Shown here one piece after another: positions 3,136 through 20,307 of a stretch of 20,307 nt of DNA. Under the pieces are notes generated by a model. That model did not search any database and was not told the origin of the DNA. It was given only the letters and a program-made list of their open reading frames with translations. Position 1 is the stretch's first letter, and every line of letters starts with the position of its first letter. The translations under genes were made by a program, and so were the position numbers. Source of the DNA: a virus (Duplodnaviria > Heunggongvirae > Uroviricota > Caudoviricetes); IMG/VR virus record IMGVR_UViG_3300028602_000006; one strand, given 5' to 3'.

Positions 3136-3786
3136 TTAAAGTGTTAAGAATTTATGATTACCGATTGTATCAAATGGTCTCAATTGAGTTCTACTTTTAT
3201 CGGTATATCCCCAAGATGGATCAGCTATACTAGGATTATAGTAATGATTCCAAGTATCAACTGGTTGGAAAGTTCCATTTATCATAGAATGAGCTATAGA
3301 CATAGCTGTATCCCAAGAAGATCCCTTTCCCTGTTTCATATTTGTCCAATCTGAAGCTCCTGCTTTATTCCAGCAACTAAATTGTAAAGGTTTTTTAATT
3401 TCTTCAATCATCTTTTGAGGATTCCCATTACCCCTGTTATAAATTACTGTAGCAATTGCATTCATTCCATCAGAACCTTCGCTTCGTCCCTCAGCATAAA
3501 TAGTTCTAGCAATAATATTTTCTTGTAAAAGTTGTTCTTGTGAAAATTCTTGTTCCTTTTGATTTGATTTTTCTTCATTCTTTTCATCGGAAATAGCATT
3601 AGCAATTGATGGATTACTTAAAGCTTGTTCTATTGCTTCTGGTTCAACATTATATTGTCTAGATGCGCTCCATACATTCATACCTCCCATAACCGATATG
3701 AGAGCTGCTAACAAAGCGGCGGGCAATGTTTCTTTAAGCCCTGCCTCTTGATTAATCTTAGCTACTTTATACCAATTACAATACAT
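3136..3786 (-). CDS. SleB-like cell wall hydrolase (Hydrolase_2 lytic transglycosylase) with N-terminal hydrophobic segment
   Basis: IARTIYAEGRSE...AIATVIYNR...QFSCWN...HYYNP...W...IGNHKF is the Hydrolase_2 signature with catalytic E. N-terminus NWYKVAK..EAG then LPAALLAALISVMGG. Confidence 0.9.
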   Translation of the reverse strand: MYCNWYKVAKINQEAGLKETLPAALLAALISVMGGMNVWSASRQYNVEPEAIEQALSNPSIANAISDEKNEEKSNQKEQEFSQEQLLQENIIARTIYAEGRSEGSDGMNAIATVIYNRGNGNPQKMIEEIKKPLQFSCWNKAGASDWTNMKQGKGSSWDTAMSIAHSMINGTFQPVDTWNHYYNPSIADPSWGYTDKSRTQLRPFDTIGNHKFLTL

Positions 3787-3842
3787 AGGAATTCCTTTTT
3801 GTTTTATAGAATATATATTCTACAAGAAAAGGAGAAGCCCCT
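3787..3842. promoter_or_regulatory. Two overlapping opposed promoters sharing a palindromic -10 region
   Basis: Plus: AGGA(3787)-N18-GAATATAT. Minus: AGGG(3842)-N18-GAATATAT. Perfect palindrome TAGAATATATATTCTA at 3807-3822. Confidence 0.6.
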
Positions 3843-4040
3843 TTGAAAAAAAAGAAACAAAATAATGTTTTAAAATGGATTTTAGAGCACGTACGCCCAT
3901 ATTCAAGATGGGATGAGGATGATGGGTTCCATAATGGTAGCAATGAGGATAATAATCAATCAGGAAGCATGTGGAGTAAATGGGCAACTACTATGAAAGA
4001 GAAGTGCATCCTAGGAATTAAGTTTAGATGGAGATTTTAA
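3843..4040 (+). CDS. Small hypothetical protein (65 aa)
   Basis: TTG start with SD AAAAGGAG (3827-3834), downstream of a promoter motif. Confidence 0.6.
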   Translation: MKKKKQNNVLKWILEHVRPYSRWDEDDGFHNGSNEDNNQSGSMWSKWATTMKEKCILGIKFRWRF

Positions 4041-4093
4041 ACTTCAGAACTGTATAATAGATTTGAATTTTTAAAAATACAGTTAGGAGGTTT

Positions 4094-4537
4094 ATGGAAT
4101 CAACGAGTCAAGTGAAACAAAGTGAACAATCTTATCCTGCGCAGAAGCAATCTCGTTATAGAGATTTGTTGAATATTATTGTAGAAAATCCGCCCAAAAA
4201 CATTACAATTGGAGAATGGGACGATAAGGGAGACTTAACGTTTTGGATTACTATGACCGATATAGGTATGGAGTATAAGGATTATAACGAGTATGAGGAT
4301 GAGTTCTTTTCTTATTTTATCATAGATTTTCTGGGCGAATTTATTATTAGGGAGAATTTGGTATTATTTATTGATAAATTAAAGAATTATGACATAAATG
4401 ATTATATGATTGCAATTGAAGATGGCAATCATAAAAGATTTGGCGTAAAAACTCATAAGGGGCAACTAATTTTTAAATTCCATATTTCATTGTTAAAAAA
4501 TATATTAACAGAAGATCTTAGAGAGACATTGGGATGA
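4094..4537 (+). CDS. Hypothetical protein (147 aa)
   Basis: SD AGGAGG before ATG; TGTATAAT at 4051-4058. Confidence 0.8.
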   Translation: MESTSQVKQSEQSYPAQKQSRYRDLLNIIVENPPKNITIGEWDDKGDLTFWITMTDIGMEYKDYNEYEDEFFSYFIIDFLGEFIIRENLVLFIDKLKNYDINDYMIAIEDGNHKRFGVKTHKGQLIFKFHISLLKNILTEDLRETLG

Positions 4538-4602
4538 GCGAGCTAACAAAGCCTTTAGTATTTTTGCCTAACAATGCGAAATTGAATTTTGATATCTATC
4601 CC
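4534..4602 (+). pseudogene. Probable original 5' end (23 codons) of the ATPase gene, separated from it by the IS insertion
   Basis: ATG overlaps the upstream stop (ATGA). MSELTKPLVFLPNNAKLNFDIYP ends exactly at the IS right end and joins in frame to ATG 5928 if 4603-5927 is removed. Confidence 0.55.
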
Positions 4603-4760
4603 GTCAATAACCCCTAGCCTAAAGGCGTAGGGGCTTGCTCAACCTCCGAAGAGGGAGCATAAGGCATATTGACGGATACCATACTTGGGTAAGATATACT
4701 ATCCAAGTAATTTTGAACTATGTTTCTGGAAGCATTTAAATCGGCGTTAAGGGAAAGATG
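4583..4760 (-). ncRNA. Predicted TnpB omegaRNA (reRNA); guide starts at 4602 (GGGAUAGAUAUCAAAAUUCA); 5' boundary approximate
   Basis: TnpB omegaRNAs overlap the tnpB 3' end and IS right end and take the guide from the flank; the right-end hairpin is present. Confidence 0.5.
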
Positions 4761-5762
4761 ACAAACATTACAGAAATACAGGCTTTGAAACTTCCTATTG
4801 GATTTTCTGATTTCTCCACATCCACTACATTTTTGGGATGTGTATTTGGCAGAAACATATTCAACCCGAATTCCTTTTGCCATTGCTTTGTAGGTCAAGA
4901 ATTGTTCAAACTGGAAGAAATTCCATTTGTTCAATTCCTTTCTCTGTTCCTTTCTTGCCTTTGCGTTTCTAATGCCCTTGAGATTTTCAAGAACAATTGT
5001 GCTTCCAGAATCAATCGAATTTACAATCTGTTTAGTAATTGTATGGTTAACATCACGACGAAACCGTTGCTCCTTAGATTTGAGTTTCTTAAGGTGTCTT
5101 TTGCCCTGATGCCCCTTCGACTGAAGTTCGCTTCTGGTTTTCCCATATTTTTGAGAAATTCTTTTTATTTTTCTTCCATCATAAAATTTGTTTTGAGATG
5201 TTACTGCAAGTTGATTAATACCTCTATCAATACCAACGAAGGTGTTATTGGGTTTAACATCAGAAATTTCTTTTTCAAAAACAACATGAAGAAATACTTT
5301 TCCATCTCTAACGAACAAATCCGCACTAGTATATTTCCAAGTCAAATATTTTTCAAAGTATTTGGGAATAACAAGATTAAATTTCTTTCTTCCTTCACAA
5401 GTAGAAATAGAAACAATATTCTTATTCAACCAAAGAGTGTAAGAATTTTTATCATACCTAATTGCAGTAGATTTAGATTTTGGACAAGTAGCCTTCTTTC
5501 CTCTTTTAATTCTTGCTTGAACAGATTTAAGGGATTCGGTCGCTTTCATTCTGGCGGAGATGGCAAGTTGAGCAGGAAGATTTTTCCTACATTCTTCGTA
5601 AACTTTGTGGTGAAGAGTTACTCCATTGGTACAAATTCCGTTAGAAGATTTAAATCCTACATTACAAACAAAATTATAAGCATTCGTGTAATGCCTAATG
5701 GTAGATTTGAACTCATCAGGAGAACAGTCTATAACAAGTTTTGCTGTATTTGTCAGTTTCAT
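4614..5762 (-). CDS. tnpB: RNA-guided endonuclease TnpB
   Basis: RuvC-I GIDRG, RuvC-II VLENL, zinc finger CSGC..CNVC, RuvC-III NADLNASRNI; catalytic D-E-D intact. Confidence 0.95.
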   Translation of the reverse strand: MKLTNTAKLVIDCSPDEFKSTIRHYTNAYNFVCNVGFKSSNGICTNGVTLHHKVYEECRKNLPAQLAISARMKATESLKSVQARIKRGKKATCPKSKSTAIRYDKNSYTLWLNKNIVSISTCEGRKKFNLVIPKYFEKYLTWKYTSADLFVRDGKVFLHVVFEKEISDVKPNNTFVGIDRGINQLAVTSQNKFYDGRKIKRISQKYGKTRSELQSKGHQGKRHLKKLKSKEQRFRRDVNHTITKQIVNSIDSGSTIVLENLKGIRNAKARKEQRKELNKWNFFQFEQFLTYKAMAKGIRVEYVSAKYTSQKCSGCGEIRKSNRKFQSLYFCNVCHLSLNADLNASRNIVQNYLDSISYPSMVSVNMPYAPSSEVEQAPTPLG

Positions 5763-5770
5763 ATATTAAC

Positions 5771-5801
5771 ATTATACACAAAAGTTGTTTAAAATACCTT
5801 C
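5771..5801 (-). promoter_or_regulatory. tnpB promoter AGGT-N18-GTATAAT, leaderless transcript
   Basis: Minus strand GAAGGTATTTTAAACAACTTTTGTGTATAAT, then 8 nt to ATG, no SD. Confidence 0.55.
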
Positions 5802-5927
5802 AAGAGATGTATAATATTTTTTGAAGTACAAAAGAAAGGAGAATGGTGTGAGAAGTCGTTTGAATTCGCTCGGCTTACCTCCCCCTAGACTGAAGGCATA
5901 GGGGTTTCACGCCTCGCAATATGAAAT

Positions 5928-7118
5928 ATGAAAAAAGAAAAGTACGGTTTGAAATCGAAAAAACGAAAAAGATTGCAGGAGGCAAATACGGAAGAGAAGC
6001 TAGACTTGCAACCTAATTTTTGTTTAGAAGAAGTTCCAGATATTAAAATCAAATCGCTTCGTATACAAAATATGAAAGCATATGATGACTTTTTTCTAGA
6101 TTTCACGGAAGATGATAATATCAAGCCTTTTGTTTGTTTTATTGGAGATAATGGAACTGGAAAATCAACGGCGTTAAACGCTATCCAAATGATCTTCCAG
6201 AGATACGATGGATATGAAGAACATCGTTTATTAGCACGTTTAAGCCACTGTATACGTCACGCATCATCTTCAAATAATAAAACAATATCTCCAGATAATT
6301 TTTTAATTGAAGCGAATATAACTTCTTCATATGGTGATTATGAAATAAAGTTCGACAAAACAGGATTTCTTGATGATCACCCAAAAGAAATAAAACAAAT
6401 ACTTTATCGACTTTGTTATTACGCCCGTTTTGACAAGGAACTTCATCAATTTCAGCTAATTAGAAGCAAATGGGATCAATTTAAGAGTTTATTCGAAGCG
6501 GTTACTGGGTTTGAGATTAATGAAACAATTGATATATTTGCTAGCGAAGATCCTGAGCAGGAAGACATTCTTGACAAGTACGTATTAGGTTTTACCGTAA
6601 AAAAACCATTTGAAACCATATCGCATAAGGATTGTAGCAATGGCGAGAAGAAAGTAATAAAATCATTTTCTACATTATTGAATTTGGAAGTGCAACCCCG
6701 TATAATATTGATCGATGATATTGCTATGCATGTAGCTTTAGGGAAGCATATGGCGCTTATTGACTCTTTACAGTCTTGTTATCCGAATAGTCAAATTTTT
6801 TCTACTACTCATAGTTATCGTATGACAAAAAATCTCAAGAAAAGGTCGCAAATATATGACTTAAGGAGGATGCATGCATGCCCAATTATAGTATCAGAGC
6901 CATGGCGTCTGCGTTTGATAGATGAAATTGAAGATGCGTTGTATAAGTTGGAAGGATTGGACTCTCCCGAAGCCAAAATTCTCCATGGAAACGGAAAAAA
7001 AATTATAACTGCATGTTATTTGGAAATCAATGACTTATGCAAATTCCAAAATGACGTTAAATATTTTTTGAAGGAAGTTTCGGATCTTTACGTAATAGGT
7101 ATGATGTCATGCGGATGA
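5928..7118 (+). CDS. ABC-type (AAA_21/AAA_15, SbcC/RecF-like) ATPase
   Basis: IKSLRIQNMKAY start strand, Walker A GDNGTGKST, signature-like CSNGEKK, Walker B IILIDD, H-loop TTHS. Confidence 0.85.
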   Translation: MKKEKYGLKSKKRKRLQEANTEEKLDLQPNFCLEEVPDIKIKSLRIQNMKAYDDFFLDFTEDDNIKPFVCFIGDNGTGKSTALNAIQMIFQRYDGYEEHRLLARLSHCIRHASSSNNKTISPDNFLIEANITSSYGDYEIKFDKTGFLDDHPKEIKQILYRLCYYARFDKELHQFQLIRSKWDQFKSLFEAVTGFEINETIDIFASEDPEQEDILDKYVLGFTVKKPFETISHKDCSNGEKKVIKSFSTLLNLEVQPRIILIDDIAMHVALGKHMALIDSLQSCYPNSQIFSTTHSYRMTKNLKKRSQIYDLRRMHACPIIVSEPWRLRLIDEIEDALYKLEGLDSPEAKILHGNGKKIITACYLEINDLCKFQNDVKYFLKEVSDLYVIGMMSCG

Positions 7119-7172
7119 CAAGATACTAACAGACAAACTATAAATTCTAAAAGAAAAAGGGAGTGACGATCT

Positions 7173-9614: not shown

Positions 9615-9638
9615 AGCTTTTAACAGTCAAACAAGGTC

Positions 9639-9676
9639 AAAGGCGTATCTATTGGGAATAAATAGATACGCTTTTT
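9639..9676 (+). terminator. Rho-independent terminator after nrdJ
   Basis: GCGTATCTATT / AATAGATACGC 11-bp stem, 7-nt loop, followed by TTTTT. Confidence 0.85.
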
Positions 9677-9703
9677 CTGTGTATAAACATGTATAATGTG
9701 ATT

Positions 9704-10978
9704 ATGAAACTAAGACTATATAATATAAATAATAAATACGCTTTTTCTTTAGACGGATTTTCTTCTTTGCATCACTACGGTTTGATTCCGGAAGTTAAAC
9801 CTTTTTATCCTTACGCTTGGCAAGCTCTCATTGAGGCGAAGCGTATAGCAAATGACAAACCGTATCATGTTAGGATGTTACAAGCTACAGTTGAGGATTT
9901 GTCAAAACCTGTTGAGTCTGATACTCCTGCTGAAGAATTGTTAATTAATCATTATGAGCATATGTTAAGAGAAATGTCAAAAAATGTTGTTGGGATAGAT
10001 GATAATTCTGAAGAAGAAAAAAAAATAACATATATGATGGTTAAATCTCAGGTTGAAGATTTATTACATGTAAAAGAAGAACTTGGAGAAAAGTACGAAG
10101 TAAGGATAAATAAACTTGTTGATGGATATCGTAAGATTGTTGATAGGCACTTTAGAGATTATTTAAATATAGACCGTAAAGAAAAAGAAAAGGCATCAGC
10201 CCCATCTATCCCCAATATGCCTCAAGTCCCTTTAGAGCCGGGCCAACCCTCTGAAGAAAATTTAACTATGGCCTCGTCTAAGAGATGTGTGTTAAACGAA
10301 GAAGAAATTCATGAGCTTCTTGAGCATTATGCGATTAAAGCATGTGAAGCGGTTTCTCGTCATCATCCAGATATTATACCTAAAGTTGATCCTCAAAATA
10401 GATTCGCTACTCTTATTGGGCTAGATAAAGGCAAAGCTATTCTGAAGATCTATGTCAATGAGAGTTGTAATATAAACAATATTGTTTCTGATAGAGATTT
10501 AGCAGAAATGTTCCCGTCTAATTCGCCTAAATTTTATCAACGGTATTGGAAACCAATTGTTGAGTCAATAGGACATTTTTTCTTGGATGAATTAGATGCT
10601 TTAATTATTCCAGAGATGTCAGCACTTCCGGATATGCCGAATGGAGATGGTAGTTTTGATATGCGGGGATGGAACCCATATGAAATTGAGGAAGTTCCAA
10701 TTAATCTTTCATTTAAGAAAGAGTGTCCTGCATGGGTCATAGCCTCCGGCGAGAAGATGAATAGAATGGCGGGTAAATATACAGAAGAAGATTTTTTGCG
10801 CAATCAGCCGACAAGAGTTCGCTGTATTGACGAAAATCTCGATTTATTTGGTAAAATTGGGGAAGTTGTTCAAATTGTCCCCATTAATGAAGCTTTGGGT
10901 TTTGAAGTTGACGTTAACTTTGGTAGAAAGATTGTGCGTTTGACGCAAGATCAACTGGAAATATTGAATGGCATATAA
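9704..10978 (+). CDS. Hypothetical protein with C-terminal SH3/KOW-like domain
   Basis: Start likely ATG 9704 (GTATAAT 6 nt upstream, leaderless). C-terminus RVRCID..FGKIGEVVQI...VDVNFG..IVRL...QLEIL fits a KOW/SH3 barrel. Confidence 0.75.
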   Translation: MKLRLYNINNKYAFSLDGFSSLHHYGLIPEVKPFYPYAWQALIEAKRIANDKPYHVRMLQATVEDLSKPVESDTPAEELLINHYEHMLREMSKNVVGIDDNSEEEKKITYMMVKSQVEDLLHVKEELGEKYEVRINKLVDGYRKIVDRHFRDYLNIDRKEKEKASAPSIPNMPQVPLEPGQPSEENLTMASSKRCVLNEEEIHELLEHYAIKACEAVSRHHPDIIPKVDPQNRFATLIGLDKGKAILKIYVNESCNINNIVSDRDLAEMFPSNSPKFYQRYWKPIVESIGHFFLDELDALIIPEMSALPDMPNGDGSFDMRGWNPYEIEEVPINLSFKKECPAWVIASGEKMNRMAGKYTEEDFLRNQPTRVRCIDENLDLFGKIGEVVQIVPINEALGFEVDVNFGRKIVRLTQDQLEILNGI

Positions 10979-11840
10979 ATTATCGAAAAAAATATTTGGA
11001 ACTAAAAATTTTCAAACCATATCCCAATTTGAAGCAGACAGTCCTATTGCCGATTGTTGCTGGGTTGATGGGTTAGGTTTAGTTTATTCTTCCGGTCAAA
11101 TTCTTGGGTTAATCTCTCCCGATGGGACGGATACATCCCCATGGAAAGGTAAGTGTTGCTCTAAAAAAGTTTTGAAAGGTACGGCTCCTGTTTTCGGTTC
11201 GCTATATGGGCTTCATTATCATCCTATATTAAAAACAATTTTTGTTACAGAGGATGGAGGCAGGAGCGTTAGGGCAATAGATATAGATAATAATTATACA
11301 ACACCAATGATAAACGGCAAGGTGAAACTTGATCTTGAAAGGCTATTGTCAAAATCACCCTTTGATTCTCCATCTTATGTATATGCAGTCGGGAAAAATA
11401 AATTTTATCTTTTGATTTCTTCTATTAAAAAATGTTTTTATTTTGATGGGAATAGTTTGGAGCATATAGCGGGAGATGGGAAGTGCCGTTATTCGATAGG
11501 AAATAGAGCAACTGCTACGTCAATTGGGATGCCATCTGGGTTAACAGGATATAAAGACCGAATTTATATGGCAGATTCGTTTAAGAATGTCATAAGAGAA
11601 TTTAAAGGAAGTAATCTTTCGCTATTTTGGGGACATCCCAATCGATCCGATATTGAGATTCCATTTAAGATATTGGTTCAAAAAAATATACTTTATACAG
11701 CATGTAGAAACGGCATATATTCTTGTATTTTTGGGTCAGAGAAAGAAAACAAAGAGCCTCTTTATAATTCTCGGAATATTGTTGGAATTGCATCAGATGA
11801 AAAGAATAGTTTATATATAGTCGAGGAAGAAAATGCCTAG
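10968..11840 (+). CDS. NHL-repeat beta-propeller protein
   Basis: IFVTEDGGRSVRAID; HIAGDG..ATATSIGMPSGL....RIYMADSFKNVIREF. Overlaps both neighbours. Confidence 0.75.
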   Translation: MAYKLSKKIFGTKNFQTISQFEADSPIADCCWVDGLGLVYSSGQILGLISPDGTDTSPWKGKCCSKKVLKGTAPVFGSLYGLHYHPILKTIFVTEDGGRSVRAIDIDNNYTTPMINGKVKLDLERLLSKSPFDSPSYVYAVGKNKFYLLISSIKKCFYFDGNSLEHIAGDGKCRYSIGNRATATSIGMPSGLTGYKDRIYMADSFKNVIREFKGSNLSLFWGHPNRSDIEIPFKILVQKNILYTACRNGIYSCIFGSEKENKEPLYNSRNIVGIASDEKNSLYIVEEENA

Positions 11841-13698
11841 GGTGAAACCAACAGAAGAAATTAAGCATAGCCCATTATTTGAGGCTATTCGTAAAATCGA
11901 AATGGATAATCCAGATATTGTGGATAAGGATGAACGTTATAAGATCGTAGATATTATGACTTTTTGTACCGATCCTAAGTATTTAGGTATTTCATATAAT
12001 GATAGCCCGGAAGAAAAGGAAAAAGAAAAAATAGAACCTGGAGATAAAGAATTTGATGCAAATGATGTAGAATTTAGGATTTTCCCGGGTCAGGCAGTTA
12101 TATTGAAGTCTTTTTATAAAGGCACAATGGGTAATGAAAACATTAAATTGTCTCAATATGAGTGGGAGTGGCTATATGAACGGGAAGATAGTATAGAACT
12201 TGACGGAATTATATATGAACGTAATATGAGAGATGTAATTCGAAAATTACACGAAAAGGAAAAGGAAGAGAAATATAAACCATTTACCCAATTAGTACTT
12301 GTGCTTGGACGCCGAGGCTCAAAAACCTTTTTAGCTTCTATAATTACAGCCTATGAAGCATATAAACTGTTGGTTATTAATAATGGCGATCCTCACAAAT
12401 ATTACAATTTGCCTGAGGATGATGAAATCGCAATTATTAATGTTGCCTTGTCTCAAAAGCAGGCGGGTCGTCTATTCGGACAGGTTCAATCAAGAATAAG
12501 AAATTCTCCGTTTTTTAAAGGGCGAGTCGCCAAAGAAACTTCTGATACAATTCGCTTATATACGGATAGGGATTTACAAAAGAAACATAGTGGATCTACA
12601 TTAAGTATTCCGGGGTCGATTCTTTTACTTTGCGGGCATAGTAACCCAGATTCCCTTGCTGGATATAGCGCTATTTTAATTCTTTTCGATGAGATTGCGT
12701 TCTATGATGAGAGTGGTAAAGTTACGGGGAAATATTTTGTGAATCGTCTTAAACCGTCCTTATCAAAATTTTATAAGTATAAGGCGGGTAAAGTAGTAAT
12801 GATTTCATCTCCGAATGTAAAAAATGGAGCGTTCTATGAAGCATTTATGGAGGCAACATCTTCCAATAACGAAATTTCTGAGCGTTCTTTATCTTTTCAC
12901 CTTCCAACATGGGACATAAATTTAGATGTTCCATATAGCGAACCGGAATTACTTAAGGAGAGGCAAGCCAATCCTGAAATGTTTGCTGTTGAGTATGGTG
13001 CGCAATGGGCTGAGGGCGGAAGCTATGGAAATTACTTTGAGGAGGCCGCTATAGATCGTTGCTTGAGGCTTGATATTGGTCCACATATGCGTCCTCAGCC
13101 TAGAACGAACTACTATATCCATGTTGACCCTGCAAAGAAGAGCAATAACTACACTGCTGTGATGGTTGGGAAACAACGATATGTTACCCCTCAAGGACAA
13201 AAGCGAACTAAGTGCGTATTGGCGGGGGTATGGTTATGGAAACCTAGCCCGGGCTTAGGTCTTCTTTTCGAGAGTATAGATATGGAATTAATAAAGATTT
13301 GTTCGATTTTTCATCCTATGTCCGTAACTTACGACGATTATCACTCTGTACATAGCGTTCAGAGACTTAGGGGGCATGGGATTAATTGTCATCAAATTTC
13401 TTTTAATGACAGGGTTAAATGTAAAGTTTATCAAAACCTTAGAAATATGATGCTATATCAACCGGAGCCGGAGATACTTTTGTATGATAACAGCGCAGAG
13501 ACCAATTTACTTATCGCAGAATTAAAGGAATTAAAGTTCAAAAAAACGAAGAGAGGATATTCAATACTTCCAGATAAAAATGGAGATGTGGCTACAGACG
13601 ATTTAGCAGATTGTTTGGCTGGAGCTACTTCCGCCGCCAATGAGGGGTTAAGGGCGGCGTTGCCTGCTCCTACAATTGTTCGGACGGGTTGGATATAA
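11833..13698 (+). CDS. terL: Phage terminase large subunit
   Basis: Walker A LGRRGSKT, Walker B ILFDEIA, motif III ISSP, RNase H-like nuclease HVDPA...YDDY...DDLADC. Confidence 0.93.
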   Translation: MPRVKPTEEIKHSPLFEAIRKIEMDNPDIVDKDERYKIVDIMTFCTDPKYLGISYNDSPEEKEKEKIEPGDKEFDANDVEFRIFPGQAVILKSFYKGTMGNENIKLSQYEWEWLYEREDSIELDGIIYERNMRDVIRKLHEKEKEEKYKPFTQLVLVLGRRGSKTFLASIITAYEAYKLLVINNGDPHKYYNLPEDDEIAIINVALSQKQAGRLFGQVQSRIRNSPFFKGRVAKETSDTIRLYTDRDLQKKHSGSTLSIPGSILLLCGHSNPDSLAGYSAILILFDEIAFYDESGKVTGKYFVNRLKPSLSKFYKYKAGKVVMISSPNVKNGAFYEAFMEATSSNNEISERSLSFHLPTWDINLDVPYSEPELLKERQANPEMFAVEYGAQWAEGGSYGNYFEEAAIDRCLRLDIGPHMRPQPRTNYYIHVDPAKKSNNYTAVMVGKQRYVTPQGQKRTKCVLAGVWLWKPSPGLGLLFESIDMELIKICSIFHPMSVTYDDYHSVHSVQRLRGHGINCHQISFNDRVKCKVYQNLRNMMLYQPEPEILLYDNSAETNLLIAELKELKFKKTKRGYSILPDKNGDVATDDLADCLAGATSAANEGLRAALPAPTIVRTGWI

Positions 13699-13705
13699 AA
13701 AAGAA

Positions 13706-13736
13706 AGGATTTTTTCTTTTTAATAGAGAAAAAAAT
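13706..13736 (+). promoter_or_regulatory. Promoter motif AGGA-N18-GAAA
   Basis: Exact spacing match; intergenic, upstream of 13772. Confidence 0.5.
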
Positions 13737-13771
13737 AAGAGGAATATTTTTACATTATGAGGAGAACAATT

Positions 13772-14947
13772 ATGAAGTTCAATTTAACATCTTATGCTTC
13801 AAAAGCCAAAGAAGGCGATATACACAATGAAAAAAAGCTTCAGAGAGATCATATCGCATCGCCAGAATCTATTACGCAAGTTCAATTAGAAAAGGATCGA
13901 GTTCCTGAAAAGGAAGTAATAATCGAAAAACTTTTAGATCAAAAGAGATTAGGCGGAGCAGATAAAATTATTGAAAAGAATCTTAATGATTCAAAAAGTT
14001 CCTTACATAAACATCGTAATGCTAAGGCTTATTCTGGGGATATTAATAAAATTGAAGAGCAGCGAGTTTCAAATAATAAAGATAAGTTTGAGAAGGCTAA
14101 ACCGGCATCATCTACTCCGTCCAAAAAAAGATGGTGGGATGATCTTAAAGCTAGCTCAAAGAAAAAGGTTGTTACGGCGCAGGCTGAAGAGGTCGAAGAA
14201 ATGACTTTCGATGAGGACACTGGATGGGGTAGAATGGAAGGTTTATGGAATGAGGAAGAAGGGCTTTCGGATACTGGAATTAAATCTTTGCCGGAAGATG
14301 CATTAGTTGAGGAATTAGGGGCAGATCCGCTTACTGTTGTTGAAATTCGTCCCGTTGATTCTCCTATTGCGAAGGGACTTTATATTGTGCTTGATATTAA
14401 TGCGGAAGGCAGCCAAATGGGTCTTGATGAACTGCAAGAAGCGGCTTATAATAAAGTTTTAAGTTCAGGATTCGGATATTTAGCCGATACTGAGGGCTTC
14501 ACTCCTGATAGTTTTGGACAACAAGGGGATCAAATGGTCGCTCGTTTAATCGGCGATGAATATTGTCCTCGTGAGACGGCAGATGGTGATGACCTTGGCA
14601 CAGAAAATCCATTTAGCGTATCTGACTTGCAGAGAACAGAAGTAGAGGGCGTTGTTCTTGGAACGGTTGCAGTTGATGCAGAAATGATGGAAATGATAAA
14701 AGATATGGACGATAGCGAGATCATACGAAATGTAAAGGATGCCATTGCAGAAGCGCATAGCGATGTTAATGTCGAGGATGATGGTATTGATCTTGATCAG
14801 CTACCGCAAGGCGTTATTAATTTTGTTGGGCAGGCTGCAGTAGATAAAGGCGGTAGGCCAGAGAGTTGGGAAAATGTTAAGGGCGCACCTATTGCCTCTA
14901 GTGATTTTGACATAGTTGTACTGTCTGAAGTCACAAAAAAAAATTAG
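13772..14947 (+). CDS. Hypothetical (likely virion) protein: basic N-terminal 16-aa repeats and acidic C-terminal half; ends on a slippery A9
   Basis: Start moved to ATG 13772 (SD GAGGAG, 7-nt spacer). Ends ACA AAA AAA AAT TAG. Confidence 0.85.
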   Translation: MKFNLTSYASKAKEGDIHNEKKLQRDHIASPESITQVQLEKDRVPEKEVIIEKLLDQKRLGGADKIIEKNLNDSKSSLHKHRNAKAYSGDINKIEEQRVSNNKDKFEKAKPASSTPSKKRWWDDLKASSKKKVVTAQAEEVEEMTFDEDTGWGRMEGLWNEEEGLSDTGIKSLPEDALVEELGADPLTVVEIRPVDSPIAKGLYIVLDINAEGSQMGLDELQEAAYNKVLSSGFGYLADTEGFTPDSFGQQGDQMVARLIGDEYCPRETADGDDLGTENPFSVSDLQRTEVEGVVLGTVAVDAEMMEMIKDMDDSEIIRNVKDAIAEAHSDVNVEDDGIDLDQLPQGVINFVGQAAVDKGGRPESWENVKGAPIASSDFDIVVLSEVTKKN

Positions 14948-15147
14948 ATCCTGATCGAATTAATAAAATAACTCAAACTTTCCTAAAGCATTTTGATGAA
15001 AATGATTTAGAGAGAGCAAACAATGAGCTTCAAGAAACGCTTTCTTTTTGCGAATTGAATGCCAAAGATCGCAGTAAAGTTATTAGCCATATCCGTAAAG
15101 AACTTTCTAAGAAAAATATATCATTAGATTATCTTGATAGTTATTAA
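14935..15147 (+). CDS. -1 frame extension (67 aa after the A-run) of the 13772 protein, reached by frameshift
   Basis: Frame open from 14929 (TGA at 14926) to TAA 15145-15147, no ATG. LDPDRINKITQTFLKHFDENDLERANNELQETLSFCELNAKDRSKVISHIRKELSKKNISLDYLDSY. Confidence 0.65.
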   Translation, partial: KKKLDPDRINKITQTFLKHFDENDLERANNELQETLSFCELNAKDRSKVISHIRKELSKKNISLDYLDSY

Positions 15148-15199
15148 TTTTTGTATTAATTTTGTTGTATAATACATTGAAACAAAAAAGGAGAGTATC

Positions 15200-16069
15200 A
15201 TGAGAGTTACAATTAAAGGGATAACACCATCGACTATCGCATTTAATACGCTGGGCATTGTCATAAGGGGAGACAGTAAAAATTTAAAACTGTATCCCGA
15301 AAGTTACGCCAAACATATTGACATTGTTAATGAAGCTCAGTTAGCAGAAGTTAATTCATTGGTTAATGCTAGATTAATTACTATCGAGGTTGAAGATGCT
15401 CCTAAGCCCAAACCAAATCCAGTCTCGCCGGATAGGTTAGCTGCCATAGTTAGCCCGGAGCCAGTCCAAGAAAATGAATCGGCTAAGACTTTGCCAAAAA
15501 CTGATACCGAGGAGGAAGAAGTTGAAGATGCTCCTCGTAAAGGTAGAGGCCGTCCGAAGGGTTCTAAAAATAAGAACTCCCCTAAAAGTTCAAAAATAAC
15601 CTCTGTCAAGAAAGTTAAAAAGGCATCTGCGGAGATGGAACGTAAAGATGATCCAGAGTCGAGATCTATTGTTATGACTCCTAATGGAGCGGTAGAGGGT
15701 AGGGTTACACGCAGCGTCGTTGGTGACATCCCAGATGGAGATAGGACGCAAGCTTCTTTAGACGCTTTGAAAAAGTTAGAAGAGGAAGAAGAATTAGATG
15801 GCAGTCTTCCTGATATTGAAATAGATGAGTCTACCCTTGATCCATCAGAGAGAATGGGTATGGAAGCGGTTATATCTGCGGGTGAAAATGGCGCAGAAAA
15901 AGTTGAAATGAAAAATTCAATCATTCCAGAGGCCAGTCAGATTAGAGAGCGAGGCGTCGAATTTATAGATCAAGCCGACAAAGACGCAGACGAAAAGGCA
16001 AGAAAGTTATCTATCAGTAAAAAAGCTAAAACTGATGACGATGATGAGTTTGACTTCTTAGAGTGTTAA
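15200..16069 (+). CDS. AT-hook DNA-binding protein with acidic tail (HMGA-like segment)
   Basis: SD AAGGAG; PRKGRGRPKGSKNKNSP; C-terminal DDDDEFDFLEC. Confidence 0.8.
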   Translation: MRVTIKGITPSTIAFNTLGIVIRGDSKNLKLYPESYAKHIDIVNEAQLAEVNSLVNARLITIEVEDAPKPKPNPVSPDRLAAIVSPEPVQENESAKTLPKTDTEEEEVEDAPRKGRGRPKGSKNKNSPKSSKITSVKKVKKASAEMERKDDPESRSIVMTPNGAVEGRVTRSVVGDIPDGDRTQASLDALKKLEEEEELDGSLPDIEIDESTLDPSERMGMEAVISAGENGAEKVEMKNSIIPEASQIRERGVEFIDQADKDADEKARKLSISKKAKTDDDDEFDFLEC

Positions 16070-16090
16070 GAGGAATTTACAGGAGATACA

Positions 16091-17173
16091 TTGAAGAATG
16101 TATCTATCATGAAGTTTTTAAGTCTAAAAAAAGAATCTCGTACGTTTATGCCAGAGATATTATCTCCGGGCACCGGCCTTACTCCACCTTCAAATAGGTC
16201 AGTTCTTCCAACAAACAACGTCCACACAATACAAGATTCATTGGACGGTAGACAATGCGTTATACCTAGCGGAGGAGGGGATTGGTCTAGAGGCGCTGAT
16301 GGCGACGAATTACCTCATTCCTATAAGGAAGAGGGAGATGGATATAGGCGCAAGGAGCGTGATCTCGCTATCATGAGGAAGATGATGCAACCCAATCCAG
16401 ATGAATCTGAAAAATGGAAAGTAAAAATACCCGGCGGATCAAGAACATTCCCTTCATTCAACATGGTTCAAGATTTTAGAAATAAAATGCGCCAAATGGG
16501 TGTCCCTATAAAATGGGTATCACGCATTGCCCAAAATCAAGATAAGGTTCAGGTCGTTTCTGAATCTCTTAAAAGAACTTTTAAAGTTGAATCTATTGAT
16601 ACTTATCATTCAATAAAAGAAACTGGAGCCGCTTTTTGTATCGCTCCCAATATATTTATAACTTGTGCTCATGTAATTGTAAATTATAATAAGGCTATAG
16701 AAACCGAATTAGATATTGATGATTTTAAGGATCAAGTCTCTGTTCAAATCATTCAAGGCGGTCATAGATTGCCTGCTGAAGTTATAGCTCTTAATGGAGC
16801 ATGGGATATTGCTATCTTGAGAGCGGAAATAGATGTCGAACCATTTAGTTTAGATATATCTTCCATGCAAATTGGAGACGACATTCTAACAATTGGTAGT
16901 CCACATGGTTTCGAAAATAATGTATCTTTTGGAAATATAGGTTCCATTGGCCGACAAATTTACGGGCATCAAGGCGCTCCCAAATATTTCTTTATTGATG
17001 CTCCTGTATTTCAGGGCAACAGCGGAGGCCCCATAGTAAAGGTTAATAGCGGAGAAGTGATCGGGATGCTTACTTCAATAGTAGCACAAGATGGGAATTA
17101 TGGATTAAATGTTGGTTTACCTTCTTATTATCTTCGTAATTTTTGTATAATGAAAGAGATAAGAACTACGTAA
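16091..17173 (+). CDS. Trypsin-like (S1/HtrA-type, no PDZ) serine protease with ~150-aa N-terminal extension
   Basis: Catalytic triad ITCAHV, DIAIL, GNSGGP. Start is TTG 16091 (SD AGGAG) or ATG 16109. Confidence 0.9.
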   Translation: MKNVSIMKFLSLKKESRTFMPEILSPGTGLTPPSNRSVLPTNNVHTIQDSLDGRQCVIPSGGGDWSRGADGDELPHSYKEEGDGYRRKERDLAIMRKMMQPNPDESEKWKVKIPGGSRTFPSFNMVQDFRNKMRQMGVPIKWVSRIAQNQDKVQVVSESLKRTFKVESIDTYHSIKETGAAFCIAPNIFITCAHVIVNYNKAIETELDIDDFKDQVSVQIIQGGHRLPAEVIALNGAWDIAILRAEIDVEPFSLDISSMQIGDDILTIGSPHGFENNVSFGNIGSIGRQIYGHQGAPKYFFIDAPVFQGNSGGPIVKVNSGEVIGMLTSIVAQDGNYGLNVGLPSYYLRNFCIMKEIRTT

Positions 17174-17261
17174 TTGATTGACGGGTTGATTTGAACGATA
17201 GCACTTTAATATGTTGATGTCTAAAGAATAACCGCCCGTTTATAGTAAGAAGGAGTATAAT

Positions 17262-17690
17262 ATGAGTCATTGGCAAACCGGCAAACTGGAACTTAAATGT
17301 AGCCTTAATATATTGAAAAAAGCGCTTATTAATGTTATGCCCGAATGGGAAAAGCATATTCAAGTTGATGAAAACGGCCAATTATCAGCTAACTTTCATG
17401 GTAATCCTGTTTCTGATAAATTCGAAATGGTTATACCCGGGAATTCAGGAGCATACGGCCTATATAGCGATGTCGGGATAAGGCGAACTTCCGGAGGAGA
17501 ATGGGAAATCGGCGGAGATTATACCGTTAATTCCTTGAAGAAGAAATTAACTGGTGAAGTTACTCGAATGAAGACTTTAGCGATTGCTCAGATGCGAGGT
17601 TATGAGGTTCTTCGAAATGAAAATAATGAAGATGAAATAATTACTGATATTAGGGTCGATGTGGATAAAGTCAGAGATCTTTTATCCTAA
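17262..17690 (+). CDS. DUF1257 / Ycf35-like protein
   Basis: MSHW......LKKAL...DVGIRR....WEIGGD...A..RGY pattern; SD AAGGAG. Confidence 0.7.
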   Translation: MSHWQTGKLELKCSLNILKKALINVMPEWEKHIQVDENGQLSANFHGNPVSDKFEMVIPGNSGAYGLYSDVGIRRTSGGEWEIGGDYTVNSLKKKLTGEVTRMKTLAIAQMRGYEVLRNENNEDEIITDIRVDVDKVRDLLS

Positions 17691-17712
17691 ACGGTTACAA
17701 AGGAGAAAAACA

Positions 17713-18033
17713 ATGGGCGAAGTTATTGTCAGGTTAACAGTTAATAAACATAATGGGAATTATGAAACCAAGATACTTGGTCATGAGAACGGCTCTACAT
17801 GTGGAGACGGTATTGATGAAGATATTTTGAATGATCTCCTTAATGCAGAAGTCCCCGGTTTTGAAAATATGGCAACTGCCGAAGACTCCGGTAGAACTTG
17901 CGAATATTTTGACGAGAAACAAGCAAAACAGCAACCGCATCATTATAAATATAATGAGGACGATGATGGAGAAGACGGCGATGAAGAAGAAAAATCCAAG
18001 AAGAATGATTTAAGTCTTGGGTATGGGGTTTAA
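17713..18033 (+). CDS. DUF2997-like protein with acidic tail
   Basis: Start ATG 17713 (SD AAGGAG). Pattern I..NG......G..G..C....L...T.EYF; directly follows DUF1257, the usual pairing. Confidence 0.6.
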   Translation: MGEVIVRLTVNKHNGNYETKILGHENGSTCGDGIDEDILNDLLNAEVPGFENMATAEDSGRTCEYFDEKQAKQQPHHYKYNEDDDGEDGDEEEKSKKNDLSLGYGV

Positions 18034-18065
18034 CGCTTATAGCTTTTATAATTTGGGGGAGGATG

Positions 18066-18097
18066 AAGAGGCGGGTTAGACCTGCCTCTTTTTTTTT
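18066..18097 (+). terminator. Rho-independent terminator
   Basis: AAGAGGCGGGT-TAG-ACCTGCCTCTT followed by a T-run. Confidence 0.9.
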
Positions 18098-18099
18098 AT

Positions 18100-18129
18100 A
18101 GGACTTTTACGGAGTAACAAAGAAATAAT
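18100..18129 (+). promoter_or_regulatory. Promoter motif AGGA-N18-GAAATAAT, leaderless start at 18134
   Basis: Exact spacing match, immediately after the terminator. Confidence 0.55.
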
Positions 18130-18133
18130 AGAA

Positions 18134-20307
18134 ATGGAAAAAGAAGGTCAAAATTCTAATTATACGGAGTATTATCAAGGGCAAACGCCGGACTATAGGC
18201 CGGGCGGGAGCATTGATTATTCTCAGTTATCTTCTGTTTTTTCGAGAACGCCTGAGACAATGGAGCTAGTATACGGGTATGCGCCTCAAATTTCTCAAGA
18301 TGTTTCCTATATATTTGATTTTTCAAATCAGGGTGCGTATGGGGTTTATATTCCAGCTTTAGTGGAGGAAGTTAAGTCCAATGAGCTTCGGCAACAACTT
18401 GAAAGCAGAGGATATGAAATTAAAGAAGAGGACGGTATGCTTGTCGCTTACCCTAAGGATGGAAAAGATGATACGCAAGTTAAGTCGGAAATAAAACAAT
18501 TATGGGATCAAATTAACGCTGGTAAAAGCGAGGTTCTTGGCGTAAATATAAATAAGGTAAAAAGTTCTACTGAGCAGCAAATGAGAGATATTGTGAATCA
18601 AGCATCATCGGCTGGAGCGCCTATCTCCAACCCCAATTTATTATGGGATATGTTAATCATGCTCGAACTTGGGGCAACTGTTGTTCATGAGTGGGAGCAT
18701 TCGAGAGGCGGAGACGAGGGAGCGGCGCAGGGACGGGAAGCTGATTTTGTATCCAAAATGATGGAAACTGTACGTCAGAAATATTTTTCCGAATCTGGCG
18801 AGGAAATGCCTGTTGAGACAATGGCTTCTACGAAGAACTGGTACAAGTTTGCTCAATATTTGAATTATATTCCTAGGAACATACGCAGGCAACCACTGGG
18901 ATCAGATCTGGATGGACGAATGGGTCGTAATCCCCCCGCCGCCACTTCAACGGCTGACTGGGGAATGATGGCTCAACAAAACCAGAGCGAACCAATTGAA
19001 AACCGTTTAGGTCGTGGATTCATGTGGCCGCTTGCAAAAGGGCTTGATCAGAGTAACCAATCAATAGAAGAGCAATTAAGGCGTCAATTCGCTACCGATG
19101 AGGTTCCAAATGTTCAAATGATACATGAAGAATTATTATCGAAAGATAGGGATTCTTCTCAAGGTTATAAAACATTAGAGCAGTTGATGGAAGAGCGTCG
19201 TCCGCAACCGCTAATGGTTCCCCTTGAGAAAACAGCATCTAAATTAAAAAAAGAAGCAACACTTTTCGGATGGTACAACAATCTTGAGATCTCAGATGGT
19301 TCTACGATTCCCGGTCTTGGAGATAGAGTAATGGCGTGGGATGATCGTGATGAGGATTTCGCTGCCGACGAAACTTGGATTAAAGAGCAGCCTAGATATA
19401 ATCCGAGTTATGATATTAAAGGATTCTACTACCGATGGATTGAGCCTCGTTTCAAGCCGCAACTTTGGGATGATATGACGAATGATCTTTCTAATACACA
19501 TCCTGCGAAAAGATTTGCTCAAGTCGAACAAAACGTAGATACATCGGGTACGCAAATTATACAGATTTTAGAAATTATAAAGAATCGCATTCTTACAGGA
19601 CAAATGCGGGCGACAAGATTAGTTGTAACAAGCGACATATTTTCTTGGATTAAAAAAATTGTTGAATGTGATGGAGTTCGAGTGAAACATTTTCGTTTTG
19701 GGAAAACAGTTGATGAAGATCCCATATATGCTGTATGGGTTACGGAACCATCAATACCCGTTGAAACATTGCGTGAGGCTGAAAAGGCGTTTCAAGCCAA
19801 AACAGAAGATGATGTTAATGATTTAGTCGAAGAGTTATTGGGGCTTTCTTATTATAGGGCAAAGGTTGTTAAGGAAATTATACAAGCTGCAAAACGCATA
19901 TGCTCTGTGATCGGAATTAAGGATCTGTATATAGTTGGTACGTATGCTAGAGAAATGGCGATGGGAAATGAATCTCCAGATGTAGAGCAATTGGATTTTT
20001 CCACATCTTCAACGAGGATGAATTCTCAAATTGGGCATCTTTTATCTAAACATCTAGGAGTAGAATCCGATATCGGAGAAGATCTCGTTTTTATTTATAA
20101 GGGTATCAAAGTTGAATTTAGTATTTCTGTTCGTAAAGAAGAATTAGCCCAATTATCTGTATTTAAGGTTAAAAGAAAAGATATGGTCGCCATAGATATT
20201 TTAAAAAGAGATTTTACAGTTAATATGCTTGCTTATAATATCATAACGGGAGAAATAATTGACCCTCTTAGAGTTGCAAAAAAGGCGATTCGCAATGGAG
20301 AAATTAA
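18134..20307 (+). CDS. Multidomain protein (>724 aa, runs off window): HExxH zincin metallopeptidase, unknown central domains, degenerate CCA-adding/poly(A) polymerase head domain
   Basis: Not in ORF track; open from ATG 18134 to the end. VVHEWEHSRGGDE at about 18680-18718. From about 19925: LYIVGTYARE...QLDF...KVEF...DILKRDFTVNMLAYN...IIDPL. Confidence 0.85.
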   Translation, partial: MEKEGQNSNYTEYYQGQTPDYRPGGSIDYSQLSSVFSRTPETMELVYGYAPQISQDVSYIFDFSNQGAYGVYIPALVEEVKSNELRQQLESRGYEIKEEDGMLVAYPKDGKDDTQVKSEIKQLWDQINAGKSEVLGVNINKVKSSTEQQMRDIVNQASSAGAPISNPNLLWDMLIMLELGATVVHEWEHSRGGDEGAAQGREADFVSKMMETVRQKYFSESGEEMPVETMASTKNWYKFAQYLNYIPRNIRRQPLGSDLDGRMGRNPPAATSTADWGMMAQQNQSEPIENRLGRGFMWPLAKGLDQSNQSIEEQLRRQFATDEVPNVQMIHEELLSKDRDSSQGYKTLEQLMEERRPQPLMVPLEKTASKLKKEATLFGWYNNLEISDGSTIPGLGDRVMAWDDRDEDFAADETWIKEQPRYNPSYDIKGFYYRWIEPRFKPQLWDDMTNDLSNTHPAKRFAQVEQNVDTSGTQIIQILEIIKNRILTGQMRATRLVVTSDIFSWIKKIVECDGVRVKHFRFGKTVDEDPIYAVWVTEPSIPVETLREAEKAFQAKTEDDVNDLVEELLGLSYYRAKVVKEIIQAAKRICSVIGIKDLYIVGTYAREMAMGNESPDVEQLDFSTSSTRMNSQIGHLLSKHLGVESDIGEDLVFIYKGIKVEFSISVRKEELAQLSVFKVKRKDMVAIDILKRDFTVNMLAYNIITGEIIDPLRVAKKAIRNGEI

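Follow-up and report, generated by a model that had tools for sequence, protein, structure and literature searches.

An Ala-ending peptide motif conserved in uncultivated giant phages, a candidate prohead-protease site and N-terminal tag

Why would a phage place the same short peptide at the very start of a cell-wall hydrolase and again in the interior of a protein that combines a zincin-type domain with a nucleotidyltransferase (NTase)-like domain? The question is raised by 20,307 nucleotides (20.3 kb) of phage DNA from the IMG/VR record IMGVR_UViG_3300028602_000006; this whole stretch is what we call the window. In its six-frame translation the peptide NWYK.A occurs at two places only, in a SleB-type hydrolase and in the 18134 protein (genes of unassigned function are called by number). 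A preliminary description of the window had grouped these copies with looser ones in other proteins and proposed an Ala-specific analogue of the prohead proteases of large phages. That proposal survives in its core: the motif is real, lies at domain boundaries and resembles such a site with Ala at P1. We hypothesize that the motif is an Ala-specific prohead-protease site that doubles as an N-terminal tag comparable to the capsid-targeting sequence found in phage T4, and we consider this reading evenly poised between right and wrong.

The peptides quoted in the preliminary description are all present in the window. With the conserved Ala taken as P1, the sites are as follows.

3757..3777, minus strand: NWYKVAK, hydrolase residues 4-10, an N-terminal tag
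10262..10279, plus strand: LTMASS, residues 192-197 of the 9689 protein, in a Pro-rich variable linker; x-[MVT]-A-S is kept in 5-6 of 6 orthologues and the flanks vary
10757..10774, plus strand: MNRMAG, residues 357-362 of the 9689 protein, a [KR]-x-A site just ahead of the conserved C-terminal domain
14093..14110, plus strand: KAKPAS, in the 13757 protein; orthologues read EKYExAS, with x-A-S kept in 6/6 and K or E at P3
14162..14182, plus strand: KKVVTAQ, residues 136-142 of the 13757 protein, at the boundary of its basic and acidic halves
15611..15628, plus strand: KVKKAS, in the 15200 protein, a weak candidate site partly kept in orthologues
16511..16534, plus strand: KWVSRIAQ, residues 141-148 of an S1 serine protease, between its N-terminal 140-residue region and its Trypsin_2 domain
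18815..18856, plus strand: ETMAS (residues 228-232) and NWYKFAQ (residues 235-241), a pair of sites immediately behind the N domain of the 18134 protein
19226..19261, plus strand: EKTAS (residues 365-369) and KKEAT (residues 372-376), in the 18134 protein, ahead of an invariant LFGWYNN block
19505..19522, plus strand: AKRFAQ, residues 458-463 of the 18134 protein, directly before its folded C-terminal part

The pattern (K/R)-x-A-(Q/S/G), under which these sites had first been collected, describes a real motif but is better written as hydrophobic-hydrophobic-[KR]-x-A, and its count in the window is not enriched. ETMAS, LTMASS, VVTAQ and FNLTSYAS (the last being residues 8-15 of the 13757 protein) have no K/R at P3.

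The case for the motif comes from its persistence in relatives. An alignment of six orthologues of the 9689 protein reads NRMAG, TKTAT, VKTAF, IKVAQ or TKEAG at the MNRMAG position in 5/6, the point where the basic half of the 13757 protein meets the acidic one aligns as VVTAQ, IKTAQ, LKLAS or LKIAF (again 5/6), and the KWVSRIAQ site of the S1 protease is kept in 6/6 orthologues at 43-74% identity. The 18134 family has more than 150 proteins. Among 47 aligned homologues, whose sequences around NWYKFAQ are variable and gapped, W236, Y237 and the K/R that follows are each kept in 46, A240 in 43, Q241 in 45 and A231 of the neighboring ETMAS in 31. In the same alignment K373 is invariant, A375 and T376 are kept in 46/47, and A458, R460, F461 and A462 are at least 90% conserved just before gapped, variable columns. 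Because the sites of the 18134, S1, 9689 and 13757 proteins persist in orthologues at 29-74% identity while the linkers drift, chance is ruled out for most of the window's sites, as judged from these alignments. The matches in the large terminase TerL (KQAG) and in the ribonucleotide reductase-like NrdJ (KPAG) lie within conserved catalytic regions and are probably due to chance.

An AlphaFold2 model of the 18134 protein has two folded parts, residues 8-228 and 470-724, and the sites fall outside both, as the preliminary description had predicted for linkers. NWYKFAQ directly follows the first fold and opens a low-confidence segment, EKTAS and KKEAT lie within the low-confidence middle, and AKRFAQ directly precedes the second fold. 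The middle region itself (residues 229-469; 18818-19540) holds the invariant blocks LFGWYNN..SDGSTIPGLGDRVMAWDDRDE and YYRWIEP, yet its predicted local distance difference test (pLDDT) score is below 50 throughout; the fold may be one that a shallow alignment does not resolve, or the region may become ordered only in a complex. A fused homologue, P0117, joins the S1 protease to the zincin domain and has K-T-A-Q exactly at the junction, as well as IKRTKTAQ at the position equivalent to KWVSRIAQ.

Syntenic relatives of the window were found in IMG/VR, two at 40-84% amino acid identity (G4, 94 kb, and G5, 52.5 kb) and one at 26-70% (G2, 296 kb). The proteome-wide test of enrichment that the preliminary description had called for was made in these relatives: the loose motif is about 2-fold enriched in G4 (78 observed versus 37.8 expected, z 7.2) and in G5 (47 versus 21.1, z 5.5), and a reversed-motif control is flat in both. 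The NWYKxA pattern, searched at the DNA level, occurs 2-4 times per related record and its reversed control never; besides the genes above, it heads a phosphoribosyltransferase (PRTase)-like protein, the L004 orthologue of the 9689 protein, and a long form of the 18134 family. In the L004 orthologue the tag MLNNWYKIAES stands in place of the N-terminal domain of about 75 residues, as though the two could be exchanged for each other. The exact form M-N-W-Y-K-x-A-Q was found in 37 IMG/VR stretches and 51 genes; one contig often carries several of these genes, and tandem arrays are common. The commoner forms in the window's closest lineage are MKIYR[IL]A, MKIFRIA, MKIIRKA and MKSWYKxA, and MKIIKxA is another version.

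At N termini the motif is a tag of many proteins. In G4, 20 of 105 open reading frames (ORFs) start with it, where 1.1 are expected (P 7e-19); in G2 the count is 12 of 280 (2.1 expected), ten of the 12 adjoining the protease gene described below, and in the window it is 1 of 18. The 20 tagged ORFs of G4 form 20 BLAST families that resemble one another in nothing but the tag. The tags draw on every one of the six Arg codons and on all codons for Ile and Ala, and conservation does not extend into the DNA upstream; since synonymous codons and upstream DNA are free to vary, selection acts on the tag peptide. A signal at the RNA or DNA level, either an extended -10-like element (TGGTATAAA) inside the N-W-Y-K codons or a recombination box, was considered and rejected on the same free variation. 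Pfam and PHROGs leave almost all tagged proteins unnamed, and a resemblance of some to ADP-ribosyltransferases (YRG, FHGT) was confirmed by no profile. Some tags are not independent of each other: a set of paralogous small proteins starting MKI..(A)..GK......S..EW..[IM]G...GW (G4 56760, 57251, 79369, 19530 and 36223; G2 203613, 206400 and 210815), includes members that match the tag pattern by homology, and these account for 3 of the 12 tags in G2 and 1 of the 20 in G4.

Which protease might cut such a motif? Identification of a prohead protease had been left as a task by the preliminary description, and one is present in the syntenic relatives, beyond the point that corresponds to the window's right end. 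To the right of the orthologue of the 18134 gene, small ORFs are succeeded by genes for a DUF192 protein, an AAA ATPase with an intein, and the portal; next stand the protease polyprotein, a decoration-like gene and the major capsid protein. The G4 coordinates are 37961-38827 for the major capsid protein, followed by the decoration-like gene, 39664-45258 for the polyprotein, then a gene for 567 residues, and 47419-49698 for the portal; profile matches support the portal (1.5e-45) and the major capsid protein (7e-72). The polyprotein has 1,864 residues in G4 and 1,870 in G5, with 19 motif sites in each, and the motif excess is concentrated there. Residues 42-223 match the PHROG head maturation protease profile (1.4e-16) and gp19 of Bacillus phage G (7e-27), and the domain also matches the mycobacteriophage Myrna group and a Gordonia phage protein annotated as capsid maturation protease. 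A sequence search of the domain against the PDB returned nothing. By its AlphaFold2 model (pLDDT 85), the N-terminal domain has the fold of herpesvirus assemblins and T4 gp21: a VIA-align comparison gave Z 11.8 for the varicella-zoster virus protease (root mean square deviation [rmsd] 2.4, 114 residues aligned) and Z 10.8 for T4 gp21 (rmsd 2.7, 130 aligned), assemblins and gp21 fill the first 38 rows, and the rows that follow are below Z 7. H97 and S148 (in S-M-G), candidates for the catalytic His and Ser, show at least 90% conservation across 47 sequences.

This protease domain is flanked by motif sites at residues 28 (within a disordered N-tail), 240 and 258, and conservation of A30, in the upstream site, reaches at least 90% across the family. 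Domain-flanking sites are found in four orthologues, in phage G gp19 and in three complete megaphages, and the polyprotein itself starts with a tag, M-I-[VL]-K-x-A-S. A search of 1.8 billion representatives yielded 2,631 relatives of the protease, and most of the best ones have 1,100-2,500 residues. In 113 protease-plus-tail proteins from different 50% clusters the motif was observed 1,437 times against 399 expected, with 294 for the reversed motif, and an unbiased scan of all X.YZ patterns placed K.AS at z 46. The preferences derived from these proteins are M/L/W at P5, I/V at P4, K over R at P3, a hydrophobic residue at P2, A at P1 and S over Q at P1'. The core of the tag agrees with this pattern at P5, P3, P2 and P1; P1' is mostly S in the polyproteins and often Q in the tags.

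The polyprotein tail has features of its own. A unit of about 17-23 residues ending in [VI][VI]T[EQ]KQL[DE] stands in 3-6 tandem copies (G4 residues ~560-690), and one copy occurs in the window:

13871..13900, plus strand: ITQVQLEKDR, near the N terminus of the 13757 protein, kept in all orthologues

Possibly the unit serves as a binding repeat within the head core, and its presence in both the polyprotein tail and the 13757 protein fits a location of the latter in that core. The start of the 13757 protein, FNLTSYAS, had been counted as a copy of the motif; it belongs instead to a different N-terminal motif, FNLK.[FY], which heads the 13757 family (window 13778-13801), the 567-residue protein adjoining the polyprotein (G4 45255-46958) and a 75-residue protein (G4 56485-56712). 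Many polyproteins (P0121-P0137 and others) carry K-L-A-[GSN]-x-F-T-[IV]-G about 20-25 residues from the C terminus; this block recalls the herpesvirus maturational site in position, but sites are no denser there than in the protein as a whole.

A cultivated phage offers a second version of the same arrangement. Bacillus phage G gp19 is annotated as a head maturation protease (PMC12484599). It is the closest cultivated homologue of the polyprotein's protease domain (34.7% identity by tblastn across 73% of the query, 44% across the core), its gene lies between those of the portal and the major capsid protein, and K-x-A-[AS] sites flank the domain. The phage G genome (NC_023719) also has a tag: at least 11 ORFs begin with [MLV]KRLIKK[SA], and 11 of the 13 six-frame matches to this pattern are at ORF starts. 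The tagged ORFs include those at 16058, 28221, 39029, 73333, 147657, 179201, 207452, 245997, 254655, 255163 and 258978; several have TTG or GTG starts, and in two the tag is followed by YHGTS or FHGTS. Phage G differs from the relatives of the window in that gp19 has 300 residues and no long tail, its tag sequence is another, and the rest of its genome is unrelated to the window.

If the motif is a head-protease site, we would picture head assembly as follows. The protease, a serine protease of the assemblin type, would free itself at the domain-flanking sites during prohead assembly and then chop the polyprotein tail into pieces. It would also cut the window's 18134, S1 precursor, 9689 and 13757 proteins at their inter-domain sites. 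The N-terminal tags (NWYKxA(Q/K), MKIYRxA, MKIIKxA and MNWYKxAQ) would bring proteins into the prohead core and then be trimmed off. On this view the hydrolase, the 9689, 13757 and S1 proteins and the zincin/NTase protein would be head-internal proteins. A wider form of the hypothesis, which we hold only tentatively, is that a single peptide code serves as head-protease cut site and universal tag, by which each genome would have dozens of its unrelated proteins loaded into the capsid, trimmed and then injected along with the DNA. The injected set would in that case comprise wall hydrolases, proteases, a nucleotidyltransferase and many ORFans, and the tag would show directly which proteins uncultivated megaphages inject, an idea open to testing in cultivated phage G.

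Several observations weigh against placing the motif in head assembly. The protease gene lies outside the window and is known only from the relatives, whose head module adjoins the point that corresponds to the window's right end. Within the window, [KR].A[QSG] occurs 10 times where 7.7 are expected (z 0.8), the six putative cargo proteins have 2.9 sites per 1,000 residues versus 0.8 in the rest (Fisher p 0.053), and an equally rare pattern common to two proteins arises in 29 of 300 shuffles; hence the claim that a shared NWYKxA is unlikely by chance fails on the window alone, but the conservation in relatives upholds it. The S1/zincin fusion with junction sites is known from a single sequence (P0117). 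It is only the motif and the head-gene neighborhood that mark the hydrolase, the two proteases and the NTase domain as putative cargo. Tagged proteins elsewhere include G6PD-like, P-loop kinase and PRTase-like enzymes, which would be odd capsid cargo, and one fifth of the ORFs of G4 appears to be a lot for head cargo. The hydrolase has the anatomy of a signal-anchor-release protein, with a muralytic domain after a weakly hydrophobic N-terminal segment. Finally, P1' is loose (S, Q, N, G, K or A), and a docking motif that ends in Ala would fit equally.

Docking is indeed the alternative that fares best. Many proteins could bind one partner, such as the tail of the protease or scaffold, the portal, a chaperone or an AAA+ ATPase, through a peptide that is never cut, and a position at termini or in linkers would then merely reflect accessibility. 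The motif does stand at N termini and in disordered linkers, its P1' position is poorly constrained, the tagged genes of G2 cluster beside head genes, and an AAA ATPase gene lies within the G4 head module. However, about 19 copies in one protein, together with two-sided flanking of a protease domain across distant relatives, make the pattern of a self-processing polyprotein, and sites at exact fusion junctions, as in P0117, suit separation better than binding. We regard an uncut docking peptide as unlikely, though it deserves to be taken seriously.

The window's own proteases might also cut the sites, as a self-processing system unrelated to capsid assembly: the HtrA-like S1 protease might tolerate Ala at P1, or alternatively the zincin domain might cut its own protein at NWYKxA-Q. 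Both domains have a conserved site beside the catalytic domain, they are fused in P0117 with K-T-A-Q junctions, and no fewer than 43 of 47 family members have NWYKxAQ after the zincin domain. Three complete megaphages (461, 488 and 548 kb) argue otherwise, as they have many MNWYKxAQ genes and no detectable S1 or zincin homologue, yet all three encode an assemblin-type polyprotein that starts with a tag and has 10-16 sites against about 3 expected. Phage G combines its tags with an assemblin-type protease in the same way, and tblastn of its genome found no homologue of the window's S1 protease or zincin protein. Tag-bearing phages that have the assemblin-type protease and neither of the other two thus point to the head protease, or to a factor that travels with it, as the reader of the motif. 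By this distribution the S1 and zincin proteases of the window look like substrates rather than general readers, and cutting by them as the common explanation seems improbable to us.

Equally improbable, in our judgment, is that the N-terminal tags aid expression through the nascent N terminus or membrane association through a W/Y/K interfacial anchor, with no relation to the internal sites. The tags directly follow the start codon, and in the hydrolase and several IMG/VR proteins a tag precedes a hydrophobic segment, but most tagged proteins have no such segment, the five-position pattern recurs internally at conserved places, the polyproteins start with a tag too, and the free codon choice rules out an RNA-level signal. 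The segment in the hydrolase is the following.

3673..3729, minus strand: TLPAALLAALISVMGGMNV, hydrolase residues 20-38 after the tag, Ala/Gly/Ser-rich, Kyte-Doolittle 19-residue mean 1.67

Its predicted role is that of a signal anchor or membrane segment. When the hydrolase was used to scan IMG/VR, no relative turned up, and the N-terminal module was recovered through the DNA pattern: the tag, QQEAG and the hydrophobic segment also head GH24-type lysozymes at the same locus in G4 and G5, and a tag plus hydrophobic segment is found in the L045 and L027 proteins. The hydrolase could be an ordinary signal-anchor endolysin; judged by its domain layout, an ejected, wall-digesting virion protein would fit equally.

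Least probable of all is that NWYK is the one meaningful element and the looser matches in the window are chance, for which the nonsignificant window-only statistics and the matches in the enzyme cores of TerL and NrdJ can be cited, but which the retention of the 9689, 13757, S1 and 18134 sites between drifting flanks contradicts.

Three known systems bear on the hypothesis of an Ala-specific head-protease site that doubles as a tag. The capsid-targeting sequence of the T4 internal proteins (IPI-III, Alt), with cleavage by gp21, was reportedly described by Mullaney and Black in 1996 (cited in PMC10052503). The T4 peptide has about 10 residues and ends in L/I-x-Glu. The likeness lies in a short N-terminal peptide on unrelated proteins and in a protease of the gp21 fold; the T4 peptide ends in a protease site, which we infer here. 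The sequence differs (hydrophobic-aromatic-K/R-x-Ala), the scale is much greater than in T4 (20/105 ORFs in one relative), and targeting and removal are hypothetical for the system described here. Herpesvirus assemblin, a UL26-type protease-scaffold fusion, cuts at Ala-Ser R and M sites. With it the polyprotein shares the fold (Z up to 11.8), an N-terminal protease in a longer assembly protein, Ala at P1, commonly Ser at P1' and domain-flanking sites, but the phage protein has K/R at P3, about 19 sites rather than two, a longer tail with ITxKQL repeats and no sequence similarity to the viral enzyme.

The prohead proteases of phiKZ (gp175) and SPN3US (gp245) recognize A-X-E (PMC10052503, PMC7411985). 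In these phages many head and ejection proteins lose N-terminal propeptides, which contain several copies of the motif, and the protease cleaves itself (PMC10052503, PMC7411985). These are giant phages with a short motif in multiple copies, as here; they differ in having Glu instead of Ala at P1, whereas the polyproteins of the window's relatives have a fused tail of about 1,600 residues, and tags of 7-8 residues replace the long propeptides.

The window covers the left-hand portion of the head-gene neighborhood of an uncultivated giant phage, and the best match of its terminase among named phages is a 485-kb uncultured phage. Its gene content, from left to right, is as follows.

Left end: a vWA three-gene module
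3136-3786, minus strand: SleB-type cell-wall hydrolase gene, Hydrolase_2 at residues 103-213 (Pfam PF07486, 7e-12; PHROG endolysin, 1.1e-14)
Right of the hydrolase, in order: a TnpB-like gene, an AAA/SMC-like ATPase and a class II ribonucleotide reductase-like gene
9689-10978 (the 9689 gene) and 10968: the next two genes, function not assigned
11833-13698: large terminase (TerL) gene
Right of TerL: two acidic proteins, 13757 and 15200, function not assigned
16091-17173, plus strand: S1 serine protease gene (Trypsin_2 PF13365, 9.5e-20), followed by two small genes
18134-20305, plus strand: the 18134 protein, 724+ residues, truncated by the window end, with an HEWEH motif and a PolyA_pol/CCA-type head domain (PF01743, 5.1e-9)
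18686..18700, plus strand: HEWEH, a zincin-type metal-binding motif in the N domain of the 18134 protein (residues 8-228; pLDDT 80-90)

H185, E186, H189 and E195 of the 18134 protein are invariant in the 47 sequences. The N domain has no Pfam family match, and a language-model search gave only leads, at 0.84-0.88, to M85, M91 and M48, which are small zincin effectors. The C-terminal part has a PolyA_pol head fold, and Foldseek matches it to CCA-adding enzymes at 2.7e-4. In the S1 protease the His, Asp and Ser motifs are readable as TCAHV, DIAIL and GNSGGP; Pfam gives no PDZ match, and the chain ends about 25 residues past the protease domain.

The element AGGA-N18-GWA occurs 14 times in the window versus 6.4 expected, a count reached in 1 of 100 shuffles. 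The 13757, S1 protease and 18134 genes each have a copy immediately upstream (13706-13730, 16071-16095 and 18100-18124, respectively), which is consistent with a shared promoter-like element of this block. The preliminary description had assigned such a promoter to most of the motif genes; it was found directly upstream of only 3 of the 6. In the relatives, the G5 terminase (28423-31623) has 1,066 residues versus 621 in the window, owing to an intein-like insertion; the G4 AAA ATPase (52461-55511) has Hint and LAGLIDADG domains, and the G4 portal has a C-terminal DUF559/MTES_1575 endonuclease-like domain.

A literature search, in a limited collection, found no description of the peptide tag. 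What is new here is the fold of the protease polyprotein together with the family-wide statistics, the other versions of the tag, including that of phage G, the sites at fusion junctions, and the exclusion of the S1 and zincin proteases as general readers. Phage G, with a homologous protease and its own version of the tag, is a cultivated system in which the hypothesis can be put to the bench. If the hypothesis is true, a specificity would be defined for a large uncharacterized branch of proteases, with Ala at P1 as in assemblins and not Glu as in T4 and phiKZ, and a short tag would be at hand with which foreign proteins could be loaded into very large capsids. It would then be possible to predict by a simple sequence rule which of the many unknown proteins of uncultivated giant phages travel in the capsid and enter the host first.

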